64,000 nucleotides of DNA from Desulfatiglandales bacterium (GCA_963662465.1 OY759599.1:4416001-4480000); one strand, 5' to 3'. Positions 1-14,355 are shown, numbered from the stretch's first letter. Translations and numbers: made by a program. Notes: generated by a model not told the origin, from the letters alone.

Positions 1-1116
1 CTTTCTTACCGGTGCAACTATTTTCAACGTAATAAGACGTTTCCCGCAAACTGGGCAACAATCCGGTTGCTCGTCGCTTCGCTGCTGCCACAGACTCTGC
101 CAGTCCAGAAATTCCGTATCTTCAAGTGCCGGTTGTCCCAGTATTTCCCGGCAGCGTGCCAGTTCTTTTTTTGCGTTGTGATGGTAAAGGCCGTATGAAC
201 GCACCATCATGGAATTCGCCAGGGGAACGTGTTGCAGGTAGCGGCCGATAAAGGTTTGAATCGGCAAGGTAATGAGTCTTACCCGCTCACGACCGTAATT
301 GAAGGTGACGTTTCCGTTTTCAATGCGGAAGATGCGTTTATTTGAGATCGGTCCGCCTCTCAGATACCGGGCCAGGTAAATTAAGACCCCTTCTCCGTAT
401 GAATAGGTCTCCTTGAGTTTAACGTTCCACTTCTTACGGCGCCCCAACTTATTAAACAGGTTTCGCGCCTGCTGCGGTCCCATGCCTTCGGGCAGAATCA
501 GTTCTTCACGGGCAAGGGCTTTTCTCAAATAGTGGAGATATTTTCCTCGAAAAACCGCCCGGACAATGCCAAACGGCAGAAGAAACGTTTTTGATGAAGC
601 AATCCACTCGCCGGCGGACAGACCACCGGCCGTCACCAAACAATGCAAATGGGGATGAAAATCCAATTTTCGGCTCCAGGTATGCAACGAGGCAATGATG
701 CCGACTTTGGCCCCCAAATGCTTCGGGTCTCCAAGGAGTTCGGAAAGGGTCTCGGTCGCGCTTTTGAACAGCAGATTAGCCATGACTTTACGGTTCAGCC
801 GCCATAAGTCATGCAATTCATCGGAGATGGTGAAAATAACGTGGAAATGCTCGGCACTCAGGAGTCGGGCCTTTTGTTTCGCCAGCCACCGCTCAACCTG
901 GGTGAAGGCGCAGAGTGGGCACATACGGTGTTTACACGAGTTATACCAGACCCTCTGGAAGTGACCATCCGGACATGCCTGGACGTGCCCCCCCAGAATG
1001 GACGTGCGGCAGGACATCAGACGATGAGCCGCCTCACGAATATGTTCCGGAAGACAATGCGTCTGATTATAGAGGGCATAGCCAAGAAGAAAGATGCCCT
1101 GAATCGTCGTTTCCAC
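1..1116 (-). CDS. IS91-family (HUH/Y2) transposase, copy 6; 3' end lies outside the window
   Basis: Sequence matches the other copies at a 1609-bp offset. Confidence 0.9.
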   Translation of the reverse strand, partial: METTIQGIFLLGYALYNQTHCLPEHIREAAHRLMSCRTSILGGHVQACPDGHFQRVWYNSCKHRMCPLCAFTQVERWLAKQKARLLSAEHFHVIFTISDELHDLWRLNRKVMANLLFKSATETLSELLGDPKHLGAKVGIIASLHTWSRKLDFHPHLHCLVTAGGLSAGEWIASSKTFLLPFGIVRAVFRGKYLHYLRKALAREELILPEGMGPQQARNLFNKLGRRKKWNVKLKETYSYGEGVLIYLARYLRGGPISNKRIFRIENGNVTFNYGRERVRLITLPIQTFIGRYLQHVPLANSMMVRSYGLYHHNAKKELARCREILGQPALEDTEFLDWQSLWQQRSDEQPDCCPVCGKRLITLKIVAPVRK

Positions 1117-1177
1117 TGCGATTTCACCTATTTCTACCAATTTTCGACGTTAAGTTCCCCCGCTGTCCAGCGGGTCT

Positions 1178-1308
1178 GTCCAACGTTTAGTTAACTGGAA
1201 AACGGGTTCAAAAAAATATATTATCATTCCAGCTGGTGACTTCGTAGGAACCAACGCATTTCGGTTTATCTCCCAATACCAGTTTTCCAGTTCAACGGGG
1301 TGTTGGAC
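1178..1308 (-). other. attC: attC site (131 bp)
   Basis: Minus strand: R'' GTCCAAC, 5-nt spacer, L'' GTTGAAC, stem TGGAAAAC...GTTTTCCA, L' GTTAAC, 5-nt spacer, R' GTTGGAC. There is one extra base in L'' and a second unpaired base further up the stem, as in canonical attC. Confidence 0.92.
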
Positions 1309-1549
1309 AGAGCCGCGGGTCATCAGCACATACTTTGCCGGAAGCAGGAGATCGGCTATGGAGATTAAGGGAGCTTCTCAGCTGTCGCGTGACCTCTTTT
1401 TAACCCGTCATGGCCGGTTAAGGATGATAAAATTCCTGCTTTCAATTGCATGATCCGTCAAAAACCCTGAAATATCGCGTTATTTATCCCTTTACCAAAC
1501 GCCTCGCCATTCAAGTGCCTTTTTGAATATGCTCATGTTTATTATCGTT

Positions 1550-2725
1550 TTACGCTGCCTGTGCATATACCGTATCCGGGTCCTTATTGAACCTCGGAAG
1601 ACTTTTTGACTTTCTTACCGGTGCAACTATTTTCAACGTAATAAGACGTTTCCCGCAAACTGGGCAACAATCCGGTTGCTCGTCGCTTCGCTGCTGCCAC
1701 AGACTCTGCCAGTCCAGAAATTCCGTATCTTCAAGTGCCGGTTGTCCCAGTATTTCCCGGCAGCGTGCCAGTTCTTTTTTTGCGTTGTGATGGTAAAGGC
1801 CGTATGAACGCACCATCATGGAATTCGCCAGGGGAACGTGTTGCAGGTAGCGGCCGATAAAGGTTTGAATCGGCAAGGTAATGAGTCTTACCCGCTCACG
1901 ACCGTAATTGAAGGTGACGTTTCCGTTTTCAATGCGGAAGATGCGTTTATTTGAGATCGGTCCGCCTCTCAGATACCGGGCCAGGTAAATTAAGACCCCT
2001 TCTCCGTATGAATAGGTCTCCTTGAGTTTAACGTTCCACTTCTTACGGCGCCCCAACTTATTAAACAGGTTTCGCGCCTGCTGCGGTCCCATGCCTTCGG
2101 GCAGAATCAGTTCTTCACGGGCAAGGGCTTTTCTCAAATAGTGGAGATATTTTCCTCGAAAAACCGCCCGGACAATGCCAAACGGCAGAAGAAACGTTTT
2201 TGATGAAGCAATCCACTCGCCGGCGGACAGACCACCGGCCGTCACCAAACAATGCAAATGGGGATGAAAATCCAATTTTCGGCTCCAGGTATGCAACGAG
2301 GCAATGATGCCGACTTTGGCCCCCAAATGCTTCGGGTCTCCAAGGAGTTCGGAAAGGGTCTCGGTCGCGCTTTTGAACAGCAGATTAGCCATGACTTTAC
2401 GGTTCAGCCGCCATAAGTCATGCAATTCATCGGAGATGGTGAAAATAACGTGGAAATGCTCGGCACTCAGGAGTCGGGCCTTTTGTTTCGCCAGCCACCG
2501 CTCAACCTGGGTGAAGGCGCAGAGTGGGCACATACGGTGTTTACACGAGTTATACCAGACCCTCTGGAAGTGACCATCCGGACATGCCTGGACGTGCCCC
2601 CCCAGAATGGACGTGCGGCAGGACATCAGACGATGAGCCGCCTCACGAATATGTTCCGGAAGACAATGCGTCTGATTATAGAGGGCATAGCCAAGAAGAA
2701 AGATGCCCTGAATCGTCGTTTCCAC
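1550..2725 (-). CDS. IS91-family (HUH/Y2) rolling-circle transposase, copy 5
   Basis: Zn-binding CRT..GGH...C...NSCKHRMCPLC, HVIFT, HUH motif HPHLH, Y2 motif YLARY, C-terminal CPVCG. A GTG start with AGGTGA RBS is preferred over the TTG at 2749. Confidence 0.95.
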   Translation of the reverse strand: METTIQGIFLLGYALYNQTHCLPEHIREAAHRLMSCRTSILGGHVQACPDGHFQRVWYNSCKHRMCPLCAFTQVERWLAKQKARLLSAEHFHVIFTISDELHDLWRLNRKVMANLLFKSATETLSELLGDPKHLGAKVGIIASLHTWSRKLDFHPHLHCLVTAGGLSAGEWIASSKTFLLPFGIVRAVFRGKYLHYLRKALAREELILPEGMGPQQARNLFNKLGRRKKWNVKLKETYSYGEGVLIYLARYLRGGPISNKRIFRIENGNVTFNYGRERVRLITLPIQTFIGRYLQHVPLANSMMVRSYGLYHHNAKKELARCREILGQPALEDTEFLDWQSLWQQRSDEQPDCCPVCGKRLITLKIVAPVRKSKSLPRFNKDPDTVYAQAA

Positions 2726-2786
2726 TGCGATTTCACCTATTTCTACCAATTTTCGACGTTAAGTTCCCCCGCTGTCCAGCGGGTCT

Positions 2787-2917
2787 GTCCAACGTTTAGT
2801 TAACTGGAAAACGGGTTCAAAAAAATATATTATCATTCCAGCTGGTGACTTCGTAGGAACCAACGCATTTCGGTTTATCTCCCAATACCAGTTTTCCAGT
2901 TCAACGGGGTGTTGGAC
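2787..2917 (-). other. attC: attC site
   Basis: Same as 1178-1308. Confidence 0.92.
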
Positions 2918-3158
2918 AGAGCCGCGGGTCATCAGCACATACTTTGCCGGAAGCAGGAGATCGGCTATGGAGATTAAGGGAGCTTCTCAGCTGTCGCGTG
3001 ACCTCTTTTTAACCCGTCATGGCCGGTTAAGGATGATAAAATTCCTGCTTTCAATTGCATGATCCGTCAAAAACCCTGAAATATCGCGTTATTTATCCCT
3101 TTACCAAACGCCTCGCCATTCAAGTGCCTTTTTGAATATGCTCATGTTTATTATCGTT

Positions 3159-4334
3159 TTACGCTGCCTGTGCATATACCGTATCCGGGTCCTTATTGAA
3201 CCTCGGAAGACTTTTTGACTTTCTTACCGGTGCAACTATTTTCAACGTAATAAGACGTTTCCCGCAAACTGGGCAACAATCCGGTTGCTCGTCGCTTCGC
3301 TGCTGCCACAGACTCTGCCAGTCCAGAAATTCCGTATCTTCAAGTGCCGGTTGTCCCAGTATTTCCCGGCAGCGTGCCAGTTCTTTTTTTGCGTTGTGAT
3401 GGTAAAGGCCGTATGAACGCACCATCATGGAATTCGCCAGGGGAACGTGTTGCAGGTAGCGGCCGATAAAGGTTTGAATCGGCAAGGTAATGAGTCTTAC
3501 CCGCTCACGACCGTAATTGAAGGTGACGTTTCCGTTTTCAATGCGGAAGATGCGTTTATTTGAGATCGGTCCGCCTCTCAGATACCGGGCCAGGTAAATT
3601 AAGACCCCTTCTCCGTATGAATAGGTCTCCTTGAGTTTAACGTTCCACTTCTTACGGCGCCCCAACTTATTAAACAGGTTTCGCGCCTGCTGCGGTCCCA
3701 TGCCTTCGGGCAGAATCAGTTCTTCACGGGCAAGGGCTTTTCTCAAATAGTGGAGATATTTTCCTCGAAAAACCGCCCGGACAATGCCAAACGGCAGAAG
3801 AAACGTTTTTGATGAAGCAATCCACTCGCCGGCGGACAGACCACCGGCCGTCACCAAACAATGCAAATGGGGATGAAAATCCAATTTTCGGCTCCAGGTA
3901 TGCAACGAGGCAATGATGCCGACTTTGGCCCCCAAATGCTTCGGGTCTCCAAGGAGTTCGGAAAGGGTCTCGGTCGCGCTTTTGAACAGCAGATTAGCCA
4001 TGACTTTACGGTTCAGCCGCCATAAGTCATGCAATTCATCGGAGATGGTGAAAATAACGTGGAAATGCTCGGCACTCAGGAGTCGGGCCTTTTGTTTCGC
4101 CAGCCACCGCTCAACCTGGGTGAAGGCGCAGAGTGGGCACATACGGTGTTTACACGAGTTATACCAGACCCTCTGGAAGTGACCATCCGGACATGCCTGG
4201 ACGTGCCCCCCCAGAATGGACGTGCGGCAGGACATCAGACGATGAGCCGCCTCACGAATATGTTCCGGAAGACAATGCGTCTGATTATAGAGGGCATAGC
4301 CAAGAAGAAAGATGCCCTGAATCGTCGTTTCCAC
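3159..4334 (-). CDS. IS91-family transposase, copy 4
   Basis: Identical translation. Confidence 0.95.
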   Translation of the reverse strand: METTIQGIFLLGYALYNQTHCLPEHIREAAHRLMSCRTSILGGHVQACPDGHFQRVWYNSCKHRMCPLCAFTQVERWLAKQKARLLSAEHFHVIFTISDELHDLWRLNRKVMANLLFKSATETLSELLGDPKHLGAKVGIIASLHTWSRKLDFHPHLHCLVTAGGLSAGEWIASSKTFLLPFGIVRAVFRGKYLHYLRKALAREELILPEGMGPQQARNLFNKLGRRKKWNVKLKETYSYGEGVLIYLARYLRGGPISNKRIFRIENGNVTFNYGRERVRLITLPIQTFIGRYLQHVPLANSMMVRSYGLYHHNAKKELARCREILGQPALEDTEFLDWQSLWQQRSDEQPDCCPVCGKRLITLKIVAPVRKSKSLPRFNKDPDTVYAQAA

Positions 4335-4395
4335 TGCGATTTCACCTATTTCTACCAATTTTCGACGTTAAGTTCCCCCGCTGTCCAGCGGGTCT

Positions 4396-4526
4396 GTCCA
4401 ACGTTTAGTTAACTGGAAAACGGGTTCAAAAAAATATATTATCATTCCAGCTGGTGACTTCGTAGGAACCAACGCATTTCGGTTTATCTCCCAATACCAG
4501 TTTTCCAGTTCAACGGGGTGTTGGAC
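4396..4526 (-). other. attC: attC site
   Basis: Same as 1178-1308. Confidence 0.92.
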
Positions 4527-4767
4527 AGAGCCGCGGGTCATCAGCACATACTTTGCCGGAAGCAGGAGATCGGCTATGGAGATTAAGGGAGCTTCTCAGC
4601 TGTCGCGTGACCTCTTTTTAACCCGTCATGGCCGGTTAAGGATGATAAAATTCCTGCTTTCAATTGCATGATCCGTCAAAAACCCTGAAATATCGCGTTA
4701 TTTATCCCTTTACCAAACGCCTCGCCATTCAAGTGCCTTTTTGAATATGCTCATGTTTATTATCGTT

Positions 4768-5943
4768 TTACGCTGCCTGTGCATATACCGTATCCGGGTC
4801 CTTATTGAACCTCGGAAGACTTTTTGACTTTCTTACCGGTGCAACTATTTTCAACGTAATAAGACGTTTCCCGCAAACTGGGCAACAATCCGGTTGCTCG
4901 TCGCTTCGCTGCTGCCACAGACTCTGCCAGTCCAGAAATTCCGTATCTTCAAGTGCCGGTTGTCCCAGTATTTCCCGGCAGCGTGCCAGTTCTTTTTTTG
5001 CGTTGTGATGGTAAAGGCCGTATGAACGCACCATCATGGAATTCGCCAGGGGAACGTGTTGCAGGTAGCGGCCGATAAAGGTTTGAATCGGCAAGGTAAT
5101 GAGTCTTACCCGCTCACGACCGTAATTGAAGGTGACGTTTCCGTTTTCAATGCGGAAGATGCGTTTATTTGAGATCGGTCCGCCTCTCAGATACCGGGCC
5201 AGGTAAATTAAGACCCCTTCTCCGTATGAATAGGTCTCCTTGAGTTTAACGTTCCACTTCTTACGGCGCCCCAACTTATTAAACAGGTTTCGCGCCTGCT
5301 GCGGTCCCATGCCTTCGGGCAGAATCAGTTCTTCACGGGCAAGGGCTTTTCTCAAATAGTGGAGATATTTTCCTCGAAAAACCGCCCGGACAATGCCAAA
5401 CGGCAGAAGAAACGTTTTTGATGAAGCAATCCACTCGCCGGCGGACAGACCACCGGCCGTCACCAAACAATGCAAATGGGGATGAAAATCCAATTTTCGG
5501 CTCCAGGTATGCAACGAGGCAATGATGCCGACTTTGGCCCCCAAATGCTTCGGGTCTCCAAGGAGTTCGGAAAGGGTCTCGGTCGCGCTTTTGAACAGCA
5601 GATTAGCCATGACTTTACGGTTCAGCCGCCATAAGTCATGCAATTCATCGGAGATGGTGAAAATAACGTGGAAATGCTCGGCACTCAGGAGTCGGGCCTT
5701 TTGTTTCGCCAGCCACCGCTCAACCTGGGTGAAGGCGCAGAGTGGGCACATACGGTGTTTACACGAGTTATACCAGACCCTCTGGAAGTGACCATCCGGA
5801 CATGCCTGGACGTGCCCCCCCAGAATGGACGTGCGGCAGGACATCAGACGATGAGCCGCCTCACGAATATGTTCCGGAAGACAATGCGTCTGATTATAGA
5901 GGGCATAGCCAAGAAGAAAGATGCCCTGAATCGTCGTTTCCAC
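4768..5943 (-). CDS. IS91-family transposase, copy 3
   Basis: Identical translation. Confidence 0.95.
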   Translation of the reverse strand: METTIQGIFLLGYALYNQTHCLPEHIREAAHRLMSCRTSILGGHVQACPDGHFQRVWYNSCKHRMCPLCAFTQVERWLAKQKARLLSAEHFHVIFTISDELHDLWRLNRKVMANLLFKSATETLSELLGDPKHLGAKVGIIASLHTWSRKLDFHPHLHCLVTAGGLSAGEWIASSKTFLLPFGIVRAVFRGKYLHYLRKALAREELILPEGMGPQQARNLFNKLGRRKKWNVKLKETYSYGEGVLIYLARYLRGGPISNKRIFRIENGNVTFNYGRERVRLITLPIQTFIGRYLQHVPLANSMMVRSYGLYHHNAKKELARCREILGQPALEDTEFLDWQSLWQQRSDEQPDCCPVCGKRLITLKIVAPVRKSKSLPRFNKDPDTVYAQAA

Positions 5944-6004
5944 TGCGATTTCACCTATTTCTACCAATTTTCGACGTTAAGTTCCCCCGCTGTCCAGCGG
6001 GTCT

Positions 6005-6135
6005 GTCCAACGTTTAGTTAACTGGAAAACGGGTTCAAAAAAATATATTATCATTCCAGCTGGTGACTTCGTAGGAACCAACGCATTTCGGTTTATCTCC
6101 CAATACCAGTTTTCCAGTTCAACGGGGTGTTGGAC
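6005..6135 (-). other. attC: attC site
   Basis: Same as 1178-1308. Confidence 0.92.
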
Positions 6136-6376
6136 AGAGCCGCGGGTCATCAGCACATACTTTGCCGGAAGCAGGAGATCGGCTATGGAGATTAAGGGAG
6201 CTTCTCAGCTGTCGCGTGACCTCTTTTTAACCCGTCATGGCCGGTTAAGGATGATAAAATTCCTGCTTTCAATTGCATGATCCGTCAAAAACCCTGAAAT
6301 ATCGCGTTATTTATCCCTTTACCAAACGCCTCGCCATTCAAGTGCCTTTTTGAATATGCTCATGTTTATTATCGTT

Positions 6377-7552
6377 TTACGCTGCCTGTGCATATACCGT
6401 ATCCGGGTCCTTATTGAACCTCGGAAGACTTTTTGACTTTCTTACCGGTGCAACTATTTTCAACGTAATAAGACGTTTCCCGCAAACTGGGCAACAATCC
6501 GGTTGCTCGTCGCTTCGCTGCTGCCACAGACTCTGCCAGTCCAGAAATTCCGTATCTTCAAGTGCCGGTTGTCCCAGTATTTCCCGGCAGCGTGCCAGTT
6601 CTTTTTTTGCGTTGTGATGGTAAAGGCCGTATGAACGCACCATCATGGAATTCGCCAGGGGAACGTGTTGCAGGTAGCGGCCGATAAAGGTTTGAATCGG
6701 CAAGGTAATGAGTCTTACCCGCTCACGACCGTAATTGAAGGTGACGTTTCCGTTTTCAATGCGGAAGATGCGTTTATTTGAGATCGGTCCGCCTCTCAGA
6801 TACCGGGCCAGGTAAATTAAGACCCCTTCTCCGTATGAATAGGTCTCCTTGAGTTTAACGTTCCACTTCTTACGGCGCCCCAACTTATTAAACAGGTTTC
6901 GCGCCTGCTGCGGTCCCATGCCTTCGGGCAGAATCAGTTCTTCACGGGCAAGGGCTTTTCTCAAATAGTGGAGATATTTTCCTCGAAAAACCGCCCGGAC
7001 AATGCCAAACGGCAGAAGAAACGTTTTTGATGAAGCAATCCACTCGCCGGCGGACAGACCACCGGCCGTCACCAAACAATGCAAATGGGGATGAAAATCC
7101 AATTTTCGGCTCCAGGTATGCAACGAGGCAATGATGCCGACTTTGGCCCCCAAATGCTTCGGGTCTCCAAGGAGTTCGGAAAGGGTCTCGGTCGCGCTTT
7201 TGAACAGCAGATTAGCCATGACTTTACGGTTCAGCCGCCATAAGTCATGCAATTCATCGGAGATGGTGAAAATAACGTGGAAATGCTCGGCACTCAGGAG
7301 TCGGGCCTTTTGTTTCGCCAGCCACCGCTCAACCTGGGTGAAGGCGCAGAGTGGGCACATACGGTGTTTACACGAGTTATACCAGACCCTCTGGAAGTGA
7401 CCATCCGGACATGCCTGGACGTGCCCCCCCAGAATGGACGTGCGGCAGGACATCAGACGATGAGCCGCCTCACGAATATGTTCCGGAAGACAATGCGTCT
7501 GATTATAGAGGGCATAGCCAAGAAGAAAGATGCCCTGAATCGTCGTTTCCAC
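6377..7552 (-). CDS. IS91-family transposase, copy 2
   Basis: Identical translation. Confidence 0.95.
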   Translation of the reverse strand: METTIQGIFLLGYALYNQTHCLPEHIREAAHRLMSCRTSILGGHVQACPDGHFQRVWYNSCKHRMCPLCAFTQVERWLAKQKARLLSAEHFHVIFTISDELHDLWRLNRKVMANLLFKSATETLSELLGDPKHLGAKVGIIASLHTWSRKLDFHPHLHCLVTAGGLSAGEWIASSKTFLLPFGIVRAVFRGKYLHYLRKALAREELILPEGMGPQQARNLFNKLGRRKKWNVKLKETYSYGEGVLIYLARYLRGGPISNKRIFRIENGNVTFNYGRERVRLITLPIQTFIGRYLQHVPLANSMMVRSYGLYHHNAKKELARCREILGQPALEDTEFLDWQSLWQQRSDEQPDCCPVCGKRLITLKIVAPVRKSKSLPRFNKDPDTVYAQAA

Positions 7553-7613
7553 TGCGATTTCACCTATTTCTACCAATTTTCGACGTTAAGTTCCCCCGCT
7601 GTCCAGCGGGTCT

Positions 7614-7744
7614 GTCCAACGTTTAGTTAACTGGAAAACGGGTTCAAAAAAATATATTATCATTCCAGCTGGTGACTTCGTAGGAACCAACGCATTTCGG
7701 TTTATCTCCCAATACCAGTTTTCCAGTTCAACGGGGTGTTGGAC
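7614..7744 (-). other. attC: attC site
   Basis: Same as 1178-1308. Confidence 0.92.
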
Positions 7745-7985
7745 AGAGCCGCGGGTCATCAGCACATACTTTGCCGGAAGCAGGAGATCGGCTATGGAGA
7801 TTAAGGGAGCTTCTCAGCTGTCGCGTGACCTCTTTTTAACCCGTCATGGCCGGTTAAGGATGATAAAATTCCTGCTTTCAATTGCATGATCCGTCAAAAA
7901 CCCTGAAATATCGCGTTATTTATCCCTTTACCAAACGCCTCGCCATTCAAGTGCCTTTTTGAATATGCTCATGTTTATTATCGTT

Positions 7986-9161
7986 TTACGCTGCCTGTGC
8001 ATATACCGTATCCGGGTCCTTATTGAACCTCGGAAGACTTTTTGACTTTCTTACCGGTGCAACTATTTTCAACGTAATAAGACGTTTCCCGCAAACTGGG
8101 CAACAATCCGGTTGCTCGTCGCTTCGCTGCTGCCACAGACTCTGCCAGTCCAGAAATTCCGTATCTTCAAGTGCCGGTTGTCCCAGTATTTCCCGGCAGC
8201 GTGCCAGTTCTTTTTTTGCGTTGTGATGGTAAAGGCCGTATGAACGCACCATCATGGAATTCGCCAGGGGAACGTGTTGCAGGTAGCGGCCGATAAAGGT
8301 TTGAATCGGCAAGGTAATGAGTCTTACCCGCTCACGACCGTAATTGAAGGTGACGTTTCCGTTTTCAATGCGGAAGATGCGTTTATTTGAGATCGGTCCG
8401 CCTCTCAGATACCGGGCCAGGTAAATTAAGACCCCTTCTCCGTATGAATAGGTCTCCTTGAGTTTAACGTTCCACTTCTTACGGCGCCCCAACTTATTAA
8501 ACAGGTTTCGCGCCTGCTGCGGTCCCATGCCTTCGGGCAGAATCAGTTCTTCACGGGCAAGGGCTTTTCTCAAATAGTGGAGATATTTTCCTCGAAAAAC
8601 CGCCCGGACAATGCCAAACGGCAGAAGAAACGTTTTTGATGAAGCAATCCACTCGCCGGCGGACAGACCACCGGCCGTCACCAAACAATGCAAATGGGGA
8701 TGAAAATCCAATTTTCGGCTCCAGGTATGCAACGAGGCAATGATGCCGACTTTGGCCCCCAAATGCTTCGGGTCTCCAAGGAGTTCGGAAAGGGTCTCGG
8801 TCGCGCTTTTGAACAGCAGATTAGCCATGACTTTACGGTTCAGCCGCCATAAGTCATGCAATTCATCGGAGATGGTGAAAATAACGTGGAAATGCTCGGC
8901 ACTCAGGAGTCGGGCCTTTTGTTTCGCCAGCCACCGCTCAACCTGGGTGAAGGCGCAGAGTGGGCACATACGGTGTTTACACGAGTTATACCAGACCCTC
9001 TGGAAGTGACCATCCGGACATGCCTGGACGTGCCCCCCCAGAATGGACGTGCGGCAGGACATCAGACGATGAGCCGCCTCACGAATATGTTCCGGAAGAC
9101 AATGCGTCTGATTATAGAGGGCATAGCCAAGAAGAAAGATGCCCTGAATCGTCGTTTCCAC
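7986..9161 (-). CDS. IS91-family transposase, copy 1 (attI-proximal)
   Basis: Identical translation. Confidence 0.95.
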   Translation of the reverse strand: METTIQGIFLLGYALYNQTHCLPEHIREAAHRLMSCRTSILGGHVQACPDGHFQRVWYNSCKHRMCPLCAFTQVERWLAKQKARLLSAEHFHVIFTISDELHDLWRLNRKVMANLLFKSATETLSELLGDPKHLGAKVGIIASLHTWSRKLDFHPHLHCLVTAGGLSAGEWIASSKTFLLPFGIVRAVFRGKYLHYLRKALAREELILPEGMGPQQARNLFNKLGRRKKWNVKLKETYSYGEGVLIYLARYLRGGPISNKRIFRIENGNVTFNYGRERVRLITLPIQTFIGRYLQHVPLANSMMVRSYGLYHHNAKKELARCREILGQPALEDTEFLDWQSLWQQRSDEQPDCCPVCGKRLITLKIVAPVRKSKSLPRFNKDPDTVYAQAA

Positions 9162-9222
9162 TGCGATTTCACCTATTTCTACCAATTTTCGACGTTAAGT
9201 TCCCCCGCTGTCCAGCGGGTCT

Positions 9223-9330
9223 GTCCAACAGTCCTAATAGGTGGAAAATTTTCCACCTATTAGCCCTATAACATGGAAAAAATTCCATCTATTGCCATAT
9301 TGAAGTCTAAAACATGGAAAAAATCCTATT
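9223..9330 (-). other. attI: attI site (core G/TTGGAC at 9229-9223; upstream extent uncertain)
   Basis: Similarity to the cassette stops exactly at the G of GTT. The site is immediately upstream of intI and is followed by a palindrome and direct repeats. Confidence 0.8.
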
Positions 9331-9365
9331 GACTTTTCCATCTATTGCGCAATATCGTCAATAGC

Positions 9366-10361
9366 ATGGAAAAATCGAAAAAATTCCGACCGGATCCCAA
9401 ACTTCGTCTTATGGATCAGGTTCGACAAGTTCTACGCTATCACCACTACGCCTATCGCACAGAACAAACTTATTGCGATTGGATCATGCGCTATATCCGG
9501 TACCATGGGAGCAATACCCATCCTCGGAATATGGGTAAGAAAGAAATCGAAGCCTTTCTGTCCCATTTGGCGGTTCAACAACACGTTGCCGCCTCCACCC
9601 AGCGCCAAGCTCTTAATGCGATTATTTTCCTATACAAAAGAGTCCTTGATATTCCGGTTGACGAAGATCTTGACCCTGTCCGCGCCAAAAGACGCTCCCG
9701 CCCCCCGGTTGTCATGAGCCAACGGGAGGTTTCCATTGTTTTGGAACACATGCACGGTTTGCATCTCCTCATGGCGAAAATCCTGTACGGCAGCGGCCTG
9801 CGGTTAATGGAGTGCATCCGACTCCGTATTCGCGATCTTGATTTTGAACGCGGGCTTATTTACGTTCGAGCCGCAAAAGGCGGTAAGGACCGTACCACCC
9901 TTTTTCCGGAATCCCTCCACTCCCTCATGAAAAATCAGGTTGAAGCGGTTGAAAAACTTCATCGGCAGGACCTGGCGGATGGATATGGGGATGTTTATCT
10001 TCCAAACGCCCTTGCCCGCAAATACCCCAATGCCGCCAAATCCCTGGGTTGGCAATATGTATTTCCCTCAAAAAAACGCAGCAAGGATCCCCGATCAGGT
10101 AAAACAATGCGGCATCATGTTCTTGAATCCGGGCTCCAAAAAGCCGTGAAGGCCGCTGTTGGAAAGGCGGGACTTACAAAACCCGTCGGTTGTCATACCT
10201 TTCGCCATTCTTTTGCAACGCATTTGCTTGAAAACGGGGTGAACATTCGGGTGGTTCAGGAATTGTTGGGCCATGCGGATGTGAAGACCACCGAGATCTA
10301 CACCCACGTAATGGAAAAGGACATTTCCGTGGTTCGAAGTCCTTTGGATGGGCTTTTGTGA
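9366..10361 (+). CDS. intI: Integron integrase (tyrosine recombinase)
   Basis: SAM-like N-terminus (YAYRTEQTY, ASTQRQALNA), GLRLMEC, KGGKDR, the IntI-specific insertion VYLPNALARKYPNA...WQYVFPS, HTFRHSFATHLL, LLGH, TTEIYTHV. ATG 9366 is preferred over TTG 9345. Confidence 0.97.
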   Translation: MEKSKKFRPDPKLRLMDQVRQVLRYHHYAYRTEQTYCDWIMRYIRYHGSNTHPRNMGKKEIEAFLSHLAVQQHVAASTQRQALNAIIFLYKRVLDIPVDEDLDPVRAKRRSRPPVVMSQREVSIVLEHMHGLHLLMAKILYGSGLRLMECIRLRIRDLDFERGLIYVRAAKGGKDRTTLFPESLHSLMKNQVEAVEKLHRQDLADGYGDVYLPNALARKYPNAAKSLGWQYVFPSKKRSKDPRSGKTMRHHVLESGLQKAVKAAVGKAGLTKPVGCHTFRHSFATHLLENGVNIRVVQELLGHADVKTTEIYTHVMEKDISVVRSPLDGLL

Positions 10362-10731
10362 AGTTGTCTTCATTCGATATGCCCTGATGTGTTCGCTCAT
10401 CAATCCCGTAACCGGCCTGTAAAGTCGGCACTCAAACATCCCACCTTGCCGGCTTACCCGTTTTTCGGAACTTTGATAAAGAATTTCACTCCCGGCGGAA
10501 AAGGCAGGCATGCCGGGAGCGGAACAGGCAGGTTTTAAGGGGATGCTCCATATGAAAACCTTCGGCGAATCGTTCAGGGTTTGTATGGATTGAACAGCAG
10601 CATGTCAGGGATGATACTTGGAATGGAAACAAAGTCAAGAAAAATCGATTAAAGAATAGGGAATTTCTGAGGTTGAGGCGAGGGTCAGAGATCAGAAAAA
10701 CAAAGAACTGATCCGGTACATTCAGGCGTCG

Positions 10732-11322
10732 TTACTTAATTGTTTTCAGCAGTGCTTTAAACTCTGTTGTGCCGGCTTTCTTGAGAATTTGGAAGATAAT
10801 GGTCTCGGTTGAGGTGACGATGGCCCCGGCTTTCCCCATCAACGACAGTCCGATCTCTCGATTGTCTTCGGTTCTGGAATCGACGGCGTGATGCGGAACA
10901 TGAACCCTGTATCCCCGTTCCAGAAGGGAGACGCATGTCTGGAAAACGCAGATGTGGGTTTCAACGCCCGTAAGGATGATATTTTTGAGGTTCCCGGCTT
11001 CAATTCCGTCATTGAAAGCGTCCACATCACAGCAGTTGAAATGCAGTTTTTCAATGGGGTTGTAAACAGGCAGGGCCTCTTGAATGACCGGCAGGGTAGG
11101 TCCCAGGTGTTTGGAATACTGTTCCGTTAATATGACGGGCAGATGAAACACACGGGCAAGGTCAAGGAGTTTCAAAAGCCTGTCTATTACACGCTCTGCC
11201 TGGCCCATGACCTGCAGGAGTTTTTCCTGTGCATCTACGATGACAAGACCTGTATTCTCTTGGTTCAATAGCGAAATGGTCATAATGTTATTAATTGTAT
11301 TCGGATCGCCATCTACTGTCAA
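10732..11322 (-). CDS. Isochorismatase-family hydrolase
   Basis: LVIVDAQEKL, TEQY...LGPT, GVETHICVFQT motifs. The real start is probably about 11283. Confidence 0.9.
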   Translation of the reverse strand: MTVDGDPNTINNIMTISLLNQENTGLVIVDAQEKLLQVMGQAERVIDRLLKLLDLARVFHLPVILTEQYSKHLGPTLPVIQEALPVYNPIEKLHFNCCDVDAFNDGIEAGNLKNIILTGVETHICVFQTCVSLLERGYRVHVPHHAVDSRTEDNREIGLSLMGKAGAIVTSTETIIFQILKKAGTTEFKALLKTIK

Positions 11323-12438
11323 CTACCGTTTTTTGTTTGCTTGCAAATTTGGTTTGGGTTCCCGTTGAATCAAAACCGCCCGTTCGGCGGCGGCAAGCGC
11401 ACCTTCGAGATAACCACCGTGTTGACTGGCAGTTTCCGTACCGGCAAAATGGACGGCGCCGTCCCAAATGGCAGTTTGACCTGCAGGGGGATAATAGAGG
11501 GGGTGTTCAATCATGGGCGGCTGGTCATACGGGGTGGCGGTAAAGGGTTCGCGTGCCCAATCCTGGTAAAAGAACGCCGTCGGCTGGGCTGCCGGTTTTC
11601 CGTAGAGAATGGCAAGTTGAGAGAGAATCGCCTCGGTGAGACGTTGTTGAGGGTTGCGTTGAACCGCCGGAATACCGAGAAACCCGGTCAGGCCATAGGG
11701 GCCATCACCGTTGTTGCTGCCGTCATGGATCTCGCCCATGGGTCCGCACTGGCTGAAAGCCTGGCCCGAGAGGTTTCTTTGCCGCCAGAAAGGTTCTTCA
11801 TAAAGGGCGCAGAATTTCGCCTGACCCGCCATCCAGGTACCGATTTTCAGCATGGCCTGGGTCAAATTGTGGGACAATTCAGGTTCAAAGAGAATGGTAG
11901 CGGCGGCAAGACGTGGCGGCAAGGCGAGGATTACCTTATTGGCGCTGAACCGTTTCCAGGGTGCTTTCTCCAGTTCGCCGACGCTGACCAGCACGCCGGC
12001 AGACTTTTTTTCGATTTTACAGACCGGGTGATTGAGTTTGACGGCGTTTTCAGGAATTAACTCACGGAGTTTCGCCATCAGGGCCATCATACCGCCCACA
12101 AGCCGCCAGGAAAGCGGTTCCATGGGGTAACCACTCACGGTCTGGACGGCACCGTTGGAATTCTGAAACCGGCCAAACCCCTCTTCAAACTGGCGATACC
12201 CCTCGAGCCCCAGATCGTAAATAAGACGCGCCATTTTCGGATGGATTGCAGGCCAGTACCAGGAGGGACCGAGATCGGAGAAAAACCCTTGATGTTCGGG
12301 GCTCAATATCCTGCCGCCGATGCGATCGCGGGCTTCGAGAACTACAAAAGATTCATTTCGTTGGGACAGCAGGCAAGCAGCATAAATACCGCTGAGACCG
12401 CCGCCGATGATCACAATATCAACTGTTTCAGTGGGCAT
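11323..12438 (-). CDS. Flavin-containing monoamine oxidase family protein
   Basis: GGGLSG, EARDRIGGR, DLGPSWYW, FAGTETA...GGYLEGAL. Confidence 0.9.
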   Translation of the reverse strand: MPTETVDIVIIGGGLSGIYAACLLSQRNESFVVLEARDRIGGRILSPEHQGFFSDLGPSWYWPAIHPKMARLIYDLGLEGYRQFEEGFGRFQNSNGAVQTVSGYPMEPLSWRLVGGMMALMAKLRELIPENAVKLNHPVCKIEKKSAGVLVSVGELEKAPWKRFSANKVILALPPRLAAATILFEPELSHNLTQAMLKIGTWMAGQAKFCALYEEPFWRQRNLSGQAFSQCGPMGEIHDGSNNGDGPYGLTGFLGIPAVQRNPQQRLTEAILSQLAILYGKPAAQPTAFFYQDWAREPFTATPYDQPPMIEHPLYYPPAGQTAIWDGAVHFAGTETASQHGGYLEGALAAAERAVLIQREPKPNLQANKKR

Positions 12439-12442
12439 GGAA

Positions 12443-13159
12443 CTATTCCGGCGGCATAGTGCTCATGTCGGGGACCCAGCCCTCGGGCGTCTTTCGGTAC
12501 AGGGGGTATCGGATGGGCGACTTGACCAGTGAGGGCCATTTGGGGTCGATAGCTCCAAGGCGGTCTATCCAAACATTGGTCTCCCGATTGGCCACCACGA
12601 TCCCCACAAGTTCAATCCCCAGTTTTTCCACCAGTTTCAATTCAGCTGACAAGGTGCCGCCGGTGCTGATGACGTCCTCCACCAGAATGACCCGCTTGCC
12701 GTCAAGACGTTCCAGCAACTTGGGATCGATATAGACCTGCTTCGGCACGGTTGGACTTGTGATGGATGTAACGGGCACGGATAGTTCATCTTCGTACCAG
12801 AATTTACGGGAATAACCCAGGGGAACATAGCGCTCATGGCCCAGTTTCCTGGCCACAATGGGGGCATAAACCATCCCCAGGGTGGGCATCCCAATAACCA
12901 CTTCCGGATCCCACTGTTTGGCCAATTTGGCCATTTCCGTTGTCAGACGGTCTTCCACCTCAAAGGTCGTTTGATTGGAGCACAGAAAGGCGATGGCCGT
13001 ATCAAAATCAGGGGGCAAGGGGAGAAGGGGAAGGTCCAGCCAGTCACCGTCGGGAAGCTGAACCGGAACGCTGTCCTGATAGGGGGGGTGCGGAACCTCT
13101 TTCATTTCCGATGCCGGGATTAACCGTTCACAATTACTGCCTTTGCCTTTCAAATCCAT
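12443..13159 (-). CDS. Type I phosphoribosyltransferase (adenine/purine PRT-like)
   Basis: PRPP loop VILVEDVISTGGT. ATG 13159 has an AGGAG RBS; the ORF track extends to 13336. Confidence 0.85.
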   Translation of the reverse strand: MDLKGKGSNCERLIPASEMKEVPHPPYQDSVPVQLPDGDWLDLPLLPLPPDFDTAIAFLCSNQTTFEVEDRLTTEMAKLAKQWDPEVVIGMPTLGMVYAPIVARKLGHERYVPLGYSRKFWYEDELSVPVTSITSPTVPKQVYIDPKLLERLDGKRVILVEDVISTGGTLSAELKLVEKLGIELVGIVVANRETNVWIDRLGAIDPKWPSLVKSPIRYPLYRKTPEGWVPDMSTMPPE

Positions 13160-13467
13160 GAAACACTCCTGTTCGTTCTGATGCGGCAAGCCGCGGTTGT
13201 AGGTTTTAGGACTTTGCCCTTTTCCCGCCGGAATATGTCCCAAAAGAGCCCGCATGTCAAGCCCCTTAAGAAAAGCCTCTGAAAACAAAAGGGAAAATGG
13301 GTGACAGGATTGTTTTTGCGACTTCTTTATTGACATAAACGGCCTTCCTTCCCTATATTCCGATCATATTCATCATCAGGATCGCAGGCAAAAGCATACC
13401 GGAGCGGTCCGGGTTTTTTCAGGATGATTCGAAAAAGAGAAAATCCAAAAAAGATAGACGAGGTTTC

Positions 13468-14355
13468 ATGGGAATGGCGGGGTTGTTACAAACCATATTG
13501 GGCGGCATCGGCGAGGGTTCCATCTATGCCCTTCTGGGGCTGTCATTTGTCCTGATTTTCGGCAAGCTGAGGATCTGTTCGGTCCTTCACGGGGACCTGG
13601 CCGTGCTGGGCGCCTATGCGGCTTACTGGTCTTTCGCCCTATGGAAAATTGACCCCTTCCTGAGTATGCTCTACCTGCTCCCCCTCTTTTTCGGGGGCGG
13701 CTACCTCATCCAGCGGTTTTTCCTGAAGCCTTTTATGGCCATGGAAACCTGGAAAGGACGATACCAGGGGCAAATCATGGTCACCTGGGGCATCGCACTG
13801 GTCATTATGGCCCTGGAGTATATCTTCTGGACCGGAACCTATCGAACCATTGCCACCGATTACCGGAACACGGCCTTCTTCATAGGGGATATCTCCCTGC
13901 CCTATGTACACCTGGCATCCATCGCCGGCGTCTTTGCCATCTATTTCCTGATCACCGCCCTGCTCAAGAGAACGGGGCTGGGGATCGCCTTGAGGGCCTG
14001 TTCCGACAACCGGACCGCCGCCATGCTGGCGGGGATCAACTACCACCGAATCTGCTCCCTGGCCTTCGGAATCTCAGCAGCCATTTCCGTGGTGGCCGGC
14101 ATCTTTTTTGCGCTGACCCATCAGATCACGCCGTCTTTGGGATTGAGCCTCACCTTCAAGGGTTGGGTTGCGGTCATCATGGGGGGAATGGGCAGCCTGG
14201 GAGGGGTGATTGCCGCAGGGCTTCTGCTGGGGGTCATCGAATCCCTCACCGCCTATTTCTATATCCCCGCCTTAAAAGAAGCGGCTCTCTATACGGCGCT
14301 CCTGGTCTTTTTGATTGCCAGGCCCGAAGGGCTGTTTAAACAGGCGAAAAACTGA
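13468..14355 (+). CDS. Branched-chain amino acid type ABC permease (LivH-like)
   Basis: GSIYALLGLSFVLIFG, G.ALRACSDN..AAMLAGIN, VIMGGMGSL. Confidence 0.92.
   Translation: MGMAGLLQTILGGIGEGSIYALLGLSFVLIFGKLRICSVLHGDLAVLGAYAAYWSFALWKIDPFLSMLYLLPLFFGGGYLIQRFFLKPFMAMETWKGRYQGQIMVTWGIALVIMALEYIFWTGTYRTIATDYRNTAFFIGDISLPYVHLASIAGVFAIYFLITALLKRTGLGIALRACSDNRTAAMLAGINYHRICSLAFGISAAISVVAGIFFALTHQITPSLGLSLTFKGWVAVIMGGMGSLGGVIAAGLLLGVIESLTAYFYIPALKEAALYTALLVFLIARPEGLFKQAKN

Follow-up and report, generated by a model that had tools for sequence, protein, structure and literature searches.

Eight identical tandem copies of an IS91-family transposase cassette at the attI site of a Desulfatiglandales integron: a candidate self-amplifying cassette

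A stretch of 64,000 nucleotides (nt) from a Desulfatiglandales bacterium (GCA_963662465.1, OY759599.1:4416001-4480000; here the window, with positions counted from its first letter) opens inside a tandem array in which eight identical copies of one integron cassette stand head to tail at the attI site of an integron. The only gene of the cassette encodes a rolling-circle transposase belonging to the IS91 insertion-sequence family. The cassette was read as possibly self-amplifying: its transposase would make single-stranded circles, and the integron integrase IntI would insert these serially at attI. We give this reading a probability of roughly one half. The parts on which it is built, namely the eight units, the attC, intI with attI, the transposase gene, the read depth and the attI placements in three integrons, were observed.

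The window corresponds to C1:4416001-4480000 in a genome assembled as one 8,161,625-bp contig (C1). Self-comparison and a repeat search gave an exact 1609-bp period over window positions 1-9229, with the first mismatch between positions i and i+1609 at 7621; 5.74 units fall inside the window. Followed leftward along the genome, the whole array occupies C1:4412357-4425228 (window -3643 to 9228), which is 12,872 bp or 8.0 units, and blastn against the genome returned eight full-length 1609-bp matches at 100% identity each (0 differences in 12,872 bp). Tandem Repeats Finder, whose longest period is 500, reported nothing for the array. The cassette boundary was set at 9228; the G at 9229 is common to both sides and was assigned to attI, with the crossover at G/TT (a slash within a sequence marks the point of joining, here and below). 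The array and its copies were placed as follows.

1 to 9228, minus strand: part of the array visible in the window; exact period with 0 mismatches, eight 100% blastn matches genome-wide.
7620 to 9228, minus strand: cassette copy 1, adjoining attI, reading from TTGGAC... to ...AACTAAACG, with G/TT boundaries.
6011 to 7619, minus strand: cassette copy 2 (period and blastn).
4402 to 6010, minus strand: cassette copy 3 (period and blastn).
2793 to 4401, minus strand: cassette copy 4 (period and blastn).
1184 to 2792, minus strand: cassette copy 5 (period and blastn).
1 to 1183, minus strand: 5' part of cassette copy 6; its remainder and copies 7 and 8 precede the window.

A first-pass annotation of the window had proposed an exact 1609-bp period without differences, and this was borne out across all eight units; the array end that it gave, 9228, is the cassette boundary at G/TT. 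Its count of at least six copies is true as a minimum, the actual number being eight once the DNA before the window is included. That no other cassette is interspersed holds for the eight copies, but a different cassette of 2276 bp continues the array distally: the DNA preceding the window, which the annotation had advised inspecting, has the array end at C1:4412357 and other cassettes beyond it. Its suggestion of very recent amplification is supported by the identity of the eight units and by the fitting read-depth ratios reported below.

Distal to copy 8, the DNA starts with TTCGCG and runs for 2276 bp up to an 87-nt attC (C1:4410075-4410161; R'' TGCGAAC, R' GTTCGCG) of the common 86-87-nt type of this genome, with at least 25 relatives there. 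This stretch is a ninth, ordinary cassette and codes for a 469-amino-acid (aa) secreted protein; a group II intron follows directly after its attC (L001, about 13720-14160). The three kinds of junction read ...GGACTG/TTGGAC at attI, ...TAAACG/TTGGAC between units and ...TAAACG/TTCGCG at the distal end, and the attI junction that preceded the arrival of the eight copies would have been ...GGACTG/TTCGCG. The distal flank shares a 10-nt identity with the DNA flanking the copy at C1:3745867; this was considered and set aside, as it stops there and is not part of a longer match.

The array adjoins an integron platform with the layout intI, attI, cassettes, the cassettes being in the usual orientation.

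9229 to 9344, no strand assigned: attI region, 116 bp, with three ATAG(A/G)TGGAA..TTTTCCA palindromic motifs, ending ...GGACTG at the crossover.
9345 to 10361, plus strand: integron integrase gene intI, divergent from the cassettes; 338-aa open frame, exact start uncertain.

IntI gave a single uninterrupted match to TIGR02249, at 445.7 bits (cut-off 265) and spanning profile positions 1-315 of 315, and also matched Pfam Phage_integrase and SAM_4. A near-identical attI region adjoins a second integrase, at C1:3288823. The duplication takes in the platform as a whole (attI, intI and 346 bp past its stop), with window 9229-10707 matching C1:3288822-3287345 at 94.1% over 1480 bp; this similarity ends about 25 bp before a neighbouring isochorismatase-family gene. 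The ends of the platform duplicate were checked for an IS91-like tetranucleotide, a sign of one-ended transposition, and GAAC was found at one copy and not at the other.

On the minus strand, each unit consists in order of TTGGAC after G, a 16-nt palindrome, one gene, about 240 nt of non-coding DNA and a 131-nt attC. The same transposase gene is present in every unit and is the sole gene of the cassette. The parts of copy 1 that matter below were located as follows.

7986 to 9185, minus strand: IS91-family HUH/Y2 transposase gene of copy 1; 399-aa open frame from TTG at 9185.
9204 to 9219, minus strand: 16-nt palindrome CCCGCTG-GA-CAGCGGG, 9 nt behind the 5' boundary.
7792 to 7797, minus strand: CCATAG motif, within the AATCTCCATAG block, about 50 nt before R''.
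7614 to 7744, minus strand: attC at the junction of copies 1 and 2, 131 nt; the same site lies at each unit junction.
7744 to 7738, minus strand: attC box R'' (GTCCAAC), followed by a spacer at 7737-7733 and L'' at 7732-7718.
7639 to 7626, minus strand: attC box L', followed by a spacer at 7625-7621 and R' (G/TTGGAC) at 7620-7614.

The transposase matched NCBIfam NF033538 at 357 bits (cut-off 125), Pfam Y2_Tnp at 167 bits and Zn_Tnp_IS91 at 86 bits. Translation likely begins with the in-frame GTG at 9161, which stands 7 nt behind AGGTGA, as read from the sequence and from the N-termini of relatives; this would give a protein of 391 aa. In an alignment of 10 sequences (the unit and nine relatives, down to 36% identity), five Cys, H162, H164 and H166, and Y255 and Y259 were invariant, so that the HxH and YxxxY catalytic motifs are intact. 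The 16-nt palindrome together with G/TTGGAC may be regarded as a conserved, terIS-like left end: GTTG plus the palindrome, with the same bases also forming the R' half-site of the cassette. This left end is kept in 15 of 15 intact 5' ends in the genome, and in relatives. Relatives with as little as 54% protein identity retain CCATAG, as does a two-gene element at locus L010 (described below), and the motif is a candidate site for the transposase. A sigma-70-like promoter match (TGGACA, 18 nt, GAAAAT; 9/12, a consensus match only) was seen at window 9185-9214 on the minus strand, overlapping the 5' palindrome, and recurs in every cassette copy (e.g., 7576-7605).

Published attC sites are 57-141 bp long and are recombined by IntI as a folded bottom strand (as described in PMC3458562). 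The 3' site of the unit has the structure of an attC, with a length inside that range. L'' GTTGAACTGGAAAAC pairs with L' GTTTTCCAGTTAAC with one extrahelical base and a variable centre between them, and the two 5-nt spacers (ACCCC and TAAAC) are non-complementary. At the tandem junction, the bottom strand folded at -32.0 kcal/mol (z-score -4.9; 0 of 200 shuffles as good) and the top strand at -28.1 kcal/mol (z-score -3.2; 2 of 200 shuffles as good). Twelve family attCs were compared, comprising that of the window, those of three further copies in the genome and eight from other genomes. Because L' was out of register between lineages in a MAFFT alignment, L'' and L' were compared pairwise. A custom attC search was noisy and at strict settings missed the site of the unit; only the 86-87-nt family and the unit's own site were used from it.

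The extrahelical base at L'' position 4 was present in 12/12 attCs despite widely differing stems, which in two sites (L004 and L015) are unrelated; seven of the twelve carry a second extrahelical base, and the identity of the base varies, as it does among the attCs of the host itself. A top-strand A.C mismatch that becomes a T.G wobble on the bottom strand was found in three lineages and the reverse in none, and the bottom strand folded better in eight attCs, equally well in two and worse in two. Among the 15 members for which both ends are known, 13 have an opening hexanucleotide that pairs without a mismatch with the R'' of the same cassette, and L004 and L011 have one mismatch each. Two covarying end states occur (TTGGAC with GTCCAAC, TTGAAC with GTTCAAC). 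Pairing between the 5' end and the R'' region extends over about 17/18 bases, with a compensated change between lineages, and exceeds that of an ordinary attC. The attC type is private to the family: 15/16 genome matches to the L'-spacer signature are ends of family cassettes. The right end presents a long palindrome followed by GTTG, GTTC or GTTA (once GATG), an appearance shared by any attC.

The genome holds 17 matches to the transposase lineage and five integrase matches above the cut-off, and for three of those five a family member lies directly at attI. At attI of the second integrase (C1:3287696-3288643) the cassette is 100% identical and has the same exact ends, although the first and second platforms are only 94.1% identical; the cassette therefore moved, or was converted, recently as a cassette-sized unit. 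An identical cassette at two attI sites on platforms 6% different would, indirectly, fit excision and insertion by IntI. At attI of the third integrase (C1:6792755-6793702) the cassette is an 82.7% relative, and further relatives follow attCs of other cassettes. Each of the genome's 15 intact 5' ends comes after a G at attI, at an attC or at another copy, and none lies at the thousands of other GTTN sites in the genome. In two additional copies a group II intron separates base 5 from base 6.

Several other arrangements were seen around these copies. The group II intron is 2.2 kb long, has at least 12 copies in the genome and sits directly after attC sites; at C1:3339700 and C1:3354083 (L003, L039) it lies within the R' box of transposase cassettes (GTTGGA/CAG). 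At C1:3747482 (L035), L004:4932 and L005:5943 an attI-like region with repeated TATCAGGGCAAAAT..CTGATAATCAATGG motifs precedes a family cassette; these regions resemble the attI of the third integron, and no integrase gene was found within the flank examined. A multi-cassette stretch that includes a family cassette occurs twice, at C1:6743238-6746984 and C1:6785803-6789549, 42,565 bp apart and with equal spacing of hairpin matches, and looks like a segmental duplication within a large array.

Relatives at 54-87% identity were found in metagenome-assembled genomes labelled Desulfobacteraceae, Desulfatiglandales and Thermodesulfobacteriota. An order-wide search of 209 genomes, which scores at most 8 candidates per genome and so gives presence and not copy counts, turned up close relatives (85-87% identity) in just 2 further genomes, both of the same genus. 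An index compiled for the wider genome scan contained no look-alike of the transposase from other genomes. True integron integrases lie divergent beside close relatives at L006 (482 bits), L008 (412 bits) and L012 (446 bits). At L010 two tandem copies are identical over 1511 nt, the second being cut inside R''. Among distant relatives (33-41% identity, several phyla), a recombinase match lies directly upstream on the same strand in 12/12 loci; the six recombinases scanned are Xer-like, 262-275 aa long and below the integron-integrase cut-off. Such two-gene elements, with an Xer-like recombinase and an IS91-type transposase on the same strand, were found at L010, L017, L018, L020 and L022-L030, and six of the nine displayed have a left end of GTTGAAC plus a CCGC..GCGG hairpin. 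In the L010 two-gene element (3280-5804) this left end is accompanied by the CCATAG block, and an R'' box, a hairpin and a G/TT end are present as well; the element stands in cassette position between intI and one-gene cassettes. Presumably these elements correspond to a subgroup of IS91 in ISfinder that carries a phage-integrase gene. The one-gene cassette appears to descend from two-gene IS91 elements with the same ends.

Read depth was examined as a test of the assembled copy number. The public runs X3 and X4, which come from one sample, maybe the source of the assembly itself, and so are not independent replicates, contain fractions of 0.90 and 0.89 of the words sampled from the stretch. 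Short unitigs with mean word depth were used; unitig depth is a coarse measure, and free circles would share the words of the unit-unit junction. Since the assembly contains eight tandem copies, one further identical copy and one copy at 99.3%, ratios of 10 (unit), 7 (unit-unit junction) and 1 (attI junction) to single-copy depth were expected. The depths were as follows.

Distal single-copy flank unitig: X3 43.9, X4 33.6; ratio 1, expected 1.
Unit, two unitigs: X3 424.4 and 423.1 (9.7x), X4 350.7 and 346.5 (10.4x); expected 10.
Unit-unit junction, 56-nt unitig: X3 303.9 (6.9x), X4 251.1 (7.5x); expected 7.
Bridge from attI to cassette, 183-nt unitig with 0 mismatches: X3 38 (0.87x), X4 28 (0.83x); expected 1.

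The comparison of unit with flank, also suggested in the first-pass annotation as a check on the assembly, thus put the unit at about ten times single copy and not at one. Junction depth close to the integer 7 in both runs gave no sign, on this coarse measure, that copy numbers vary widely. Coverage of the stretch in runs X5 and X6 is piecemeal, and a single unitig was used from X5, which derives from another sample with the same organism label: over 404 nt it joins the first 329 nt of the cassette, matched with 0 mismatches, to an attI of the third integron's type.

The proposed mechanism draws on published work. IntI can re-insert an excised cassette at attI and so duplicate it, and attC recombination is replicative (as described in PMC3458562). 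For transposases of the IS91 family, oriIS downstream of tnpA is the starting point and terIS, upstream, the end point; single-stranded and double-stranded circles form, and only the bottom-strand single-stranded circle is inserted (as described in PMC13181058). In the proposed mechanism, the transposase of the cassette would act on its own cassette, with the left-end hairpin and the CCATAG block as its candidate sites, and would release the bottom strand as a circle, as published for IS91. The released circle would carry the bottom-strand attC fold, which is the substrate of IntI, and pasting at attI would be done by IntI rather than by the transposase. Because the transposase clade is constantly paired with a tyrosine recombinase, whether its own or IntI, the HUH enzyme would be the one that copies and the recombinase the one that pastes. 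Every new insertion would shift the older copies further down the array, and repetition would stack them. As to ancestry, the source would be two-gene IS91 elements with the same ends, their own recombinase having been lost and the IntI of the host being used in trans. The fuller account, in which a transposon of the IS91 lineage shed its recombinase, its ends became a working attC, its bottom-strand circles are pasted by the host IntI, and the stack and the presence in three integrons are the footprint of this self-replicating cassette, is held more tentatively, at somewhat under even odds.

Several points weigh against the self-amplifying cassette. Circles, nicking and transposase activity are, at this locus, predictions from the DNA sequence. 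The bottom strand of the published IS91 work was taken to be the strand opposite the tnpA sense strand, on the wording of the text and legends of PMC13181058. The depth data come from one sample, possibly that of the assembly, and the depth of the unit-unit junction fits tandem copies and free circles alike. The copy at C1:3341303 precedes AT instead of TT. The ends also fit the IS91 layout, so that insertion by the transposase alone beside a GTT core might have occurred, and the junction that this would leave is just 1 nt out of phase and has the same sequence. Finally, from two copies on, unequal exchange by RecA yields the same perfect array.

The last point underlies an alternative in which a single IntI duplication at attI was followed by RecA-dependent unequal sister-chromatid exchange up to eight copies, the transposase being uninvolved. 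Since exchange from two copies suffices, the eight copies alone need no repeated site-specific events; identical 1.6-kb tandem units are a good substrate, exchange preserves their identity and register, all eight copies are identical, and replicative attC recombination accounts for the first duplication without a transposase (as described in PMC3458562). We nevertheless consider this account rather unlikely, as it leaves unexplained the presence of the family at attI of three integrons, the identical copy on platforms that are 94% alike, and the perfect tandem pair in another genome. Selection for extra copies of a transposase gene is not evident, and the junction ratios of 6.9 and 7.5, near 7, showed no broad copy-number spread on a coarse measure. 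Alternatively, all eight units may have been made in one run by repeated termination failure on a circular template and inserted by one IntI event at attI. Termination failure in the IS91 family amounts to 1-14% of events, and to 11-29% in one assay (as described in PMC13181058); on a circular template it would give multimers, and perfect identity would follow. Seven consecutive failures would be very rare, roughly 1e-7 to 2e-4 by arithmetic from the published rates, and we hold such a concatemer to be highly improbable, even if it would leave the same sequence as serial insertion. The concatemer route with a single IntI event, serial IntI reinsertion and RecA exchange had all been offered by the first-pass annotation, and the three are expected to look alike in sequence; the first two are mechanistically plausible because the cassette encodes an IS91-family rolling-circle transposase, an identity that this entry of the annotation did not give.

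In a further account, the unit would be an insertion sequence of the IS91 family whose transposase alone directs it to the GTT core in attI and attC sites; its left end would carry the same tetranucleotide as its target, GTTG, and new copies would arrive upstream of those already present and so form a head-to-tail array. The published terIS is a tetranucleotide (GTTC in IS801 and IS1294) plus one subterminal palindrome upstream of tnpA, and the published oriIS consists of downstream palindromes beside the target CTTG, GTTC or GTCC (as described in PMC13181058). In the unit, the left side offers G-TTG with a 16-nt palindrome and the right side a long palindrome with GTTG, GTTC or GTTA; R'' itself starts with GTCC or GTTC, and all of this IS91 subgroup, two-gene elements from other phyla among them, keeps the left end. 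The unit's attC type, found only on family cassettes (15/16 signature matches) and unlike the common 86-nt attC of the genome, fits as well. Against this stands the distribution of the 15 intact 5' ends, all of them at attI, attC or another copy and none at other GTTN sites; all the structural marks of an attC are kept despite differing stems, which an origin by transposase would not require; and the universal tyrosine recombinase partner, own or IntI, suggests that the transposase does not paste alone. On balance we judge insertion by the transposase alone to be unlikely. Least credible, to a degree that leaves it almost no weight, is an assembly artefact, in which the assembler would have made eight copies out of a free circle or of a cassette present once or a few times. 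Assemblers are known to handle long, exact tandem repeats poorly, and the copy number rests on unitigs and not on individual spanning reads; the artefact is disfavoured because the depth ratios match the assembled copy number (9.7x and 10.4x against 10 for the unit, 6.9x and 7.5x against 7 for its junction, and 0.87x and 0.83x for the attI junction).

Beyond the integron platform, the minus strand at window 10732-13336, on the non-cassette side of intI, encodes an isochorismatase-family protein, a flavin amine oxidase and a phosphoribosyltransferase-domain protein, and from 13468 ABC-transporter-like permease and ATPase genes follow. The genome also contains a second, unrelated IS91-family element, seen as about ten near-identical copies with open frames of about 444 aa that match NF033538 at 215-217 bits (C1:380997, 506124, 1051425, 1525127, 1590228, 1704287, 7213235, 7676878, 8150139 and others). 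This element lies away from integrons, so the genome also hosts a conventional, dispersed IS91-type element.

The finding combines two known kinds of element, an integron cassette and an IS91 element, in one. Like ordinary integron cassettes, the unit has G/TT bounds, R'', L'', L' and R' boxes, unpaired spacers, an extrahelical base and one sense-oriented gene, and it lies at attI beside a divergent intI, where duplication by excision and re-insertion is an accepted route (as described in PMC3458562). It is placed forward at the IntI crossover. Unlike ordinary cassettes, it carries a rolling-circle transposase instead of an adaptive or toxin-antitoxin gene, stands as eight identical copies in a row, and has a conserved 5' hairpin, R''/R' pairing of about 17/18 bp, and a private attC type that differs from the common attC of the host. 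With IS91, IS801, IS1294 and IS1294b it shares an HUH/Y2 transposase with an N-terminal zinc domain and the lack of a target duplication, and it may also share the left tetranucleotide with a subterminal palindrome and the right-end palindromes with GTTN; by analogy, copy-and-paste via single-stranded circles would be expected of it (as described in PMC13181058). It departs from the family in occurring only at integron recombination sites in this genome, in having a full attC as its right end and in being without orf121, whereas canonical IS91 members are scattered over many CTTG and GTTC sites and are independent of a tyrosine recombinase (as described in PMC13181058).

The closest likeness in transposase clade and left end is to the two-gene IS91 elements (33-41% identity; GTTGAAC plus CCGC..GCGG hairpin), and the L010 two-gene element further shares the CCATAG motif, R'' box, hairpin, G/TT end and cassette position. 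Each two-gene element comes with a recombinase gene of its own, the product being about 265-275 aa long and below the IntI cut-off; the unit has none and adjoins a true IntI. Like IS1111-attC insertion sequences, the unit lives in integron recombination sites; those elements interrupt the attC by their own enzymes and are not built as cassettes. The attC-homing group II introns are likewise mobile elements of integron recombination sites, and they too interrupt the attC with their own enzymes and are not built as cassettes (as described in PMC7923331). ISCR1 in complex class 1 integrons is also an IS91 relative tied to integrons, but, as described in PMC8876359, it is located on the far side of the 3' conserved segment, has no attC and does not form a cassette. 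A literature search, with ISfinder, TnPedia and most subscription journals outside it, found neither an IS91-type transposase as an integron cassette nor a homogeneous multimer of this kind at attI; the literature, as far as it was covered, deals with the duplication of cassettes in general terms, with an aadB cassette array that was amplified, and with ISCR1 located beside class 1 integrons.

The finding bears on the origin of cassettes and attC sites and on cassette duplication. Integron cassettes are usually viewed as passive, promoterless cargo moved by IntI alone, and the single-stranded bottom-strand attC DNA that IntI needs is thought to limit recombination through its supply. If the proposed mechanism is true, this cassette would be the first to have an interest of its own in being spread, its cargo enzyme making single-stranded circular copies of its own DNA. 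An HUH enzyme that supplies attC single-stranded DNA would couple two mobile systems that have been studied separately, and IS91-plus-recombinase elements would connect rolling-circle transposons with the integron system. The eight copies displace other cassettes 12.9 kb from attI, and would silence them if expression needs a promoter at the attI end. If the cassette does replicate itself in this way, integrons would be open to parasitism from within.

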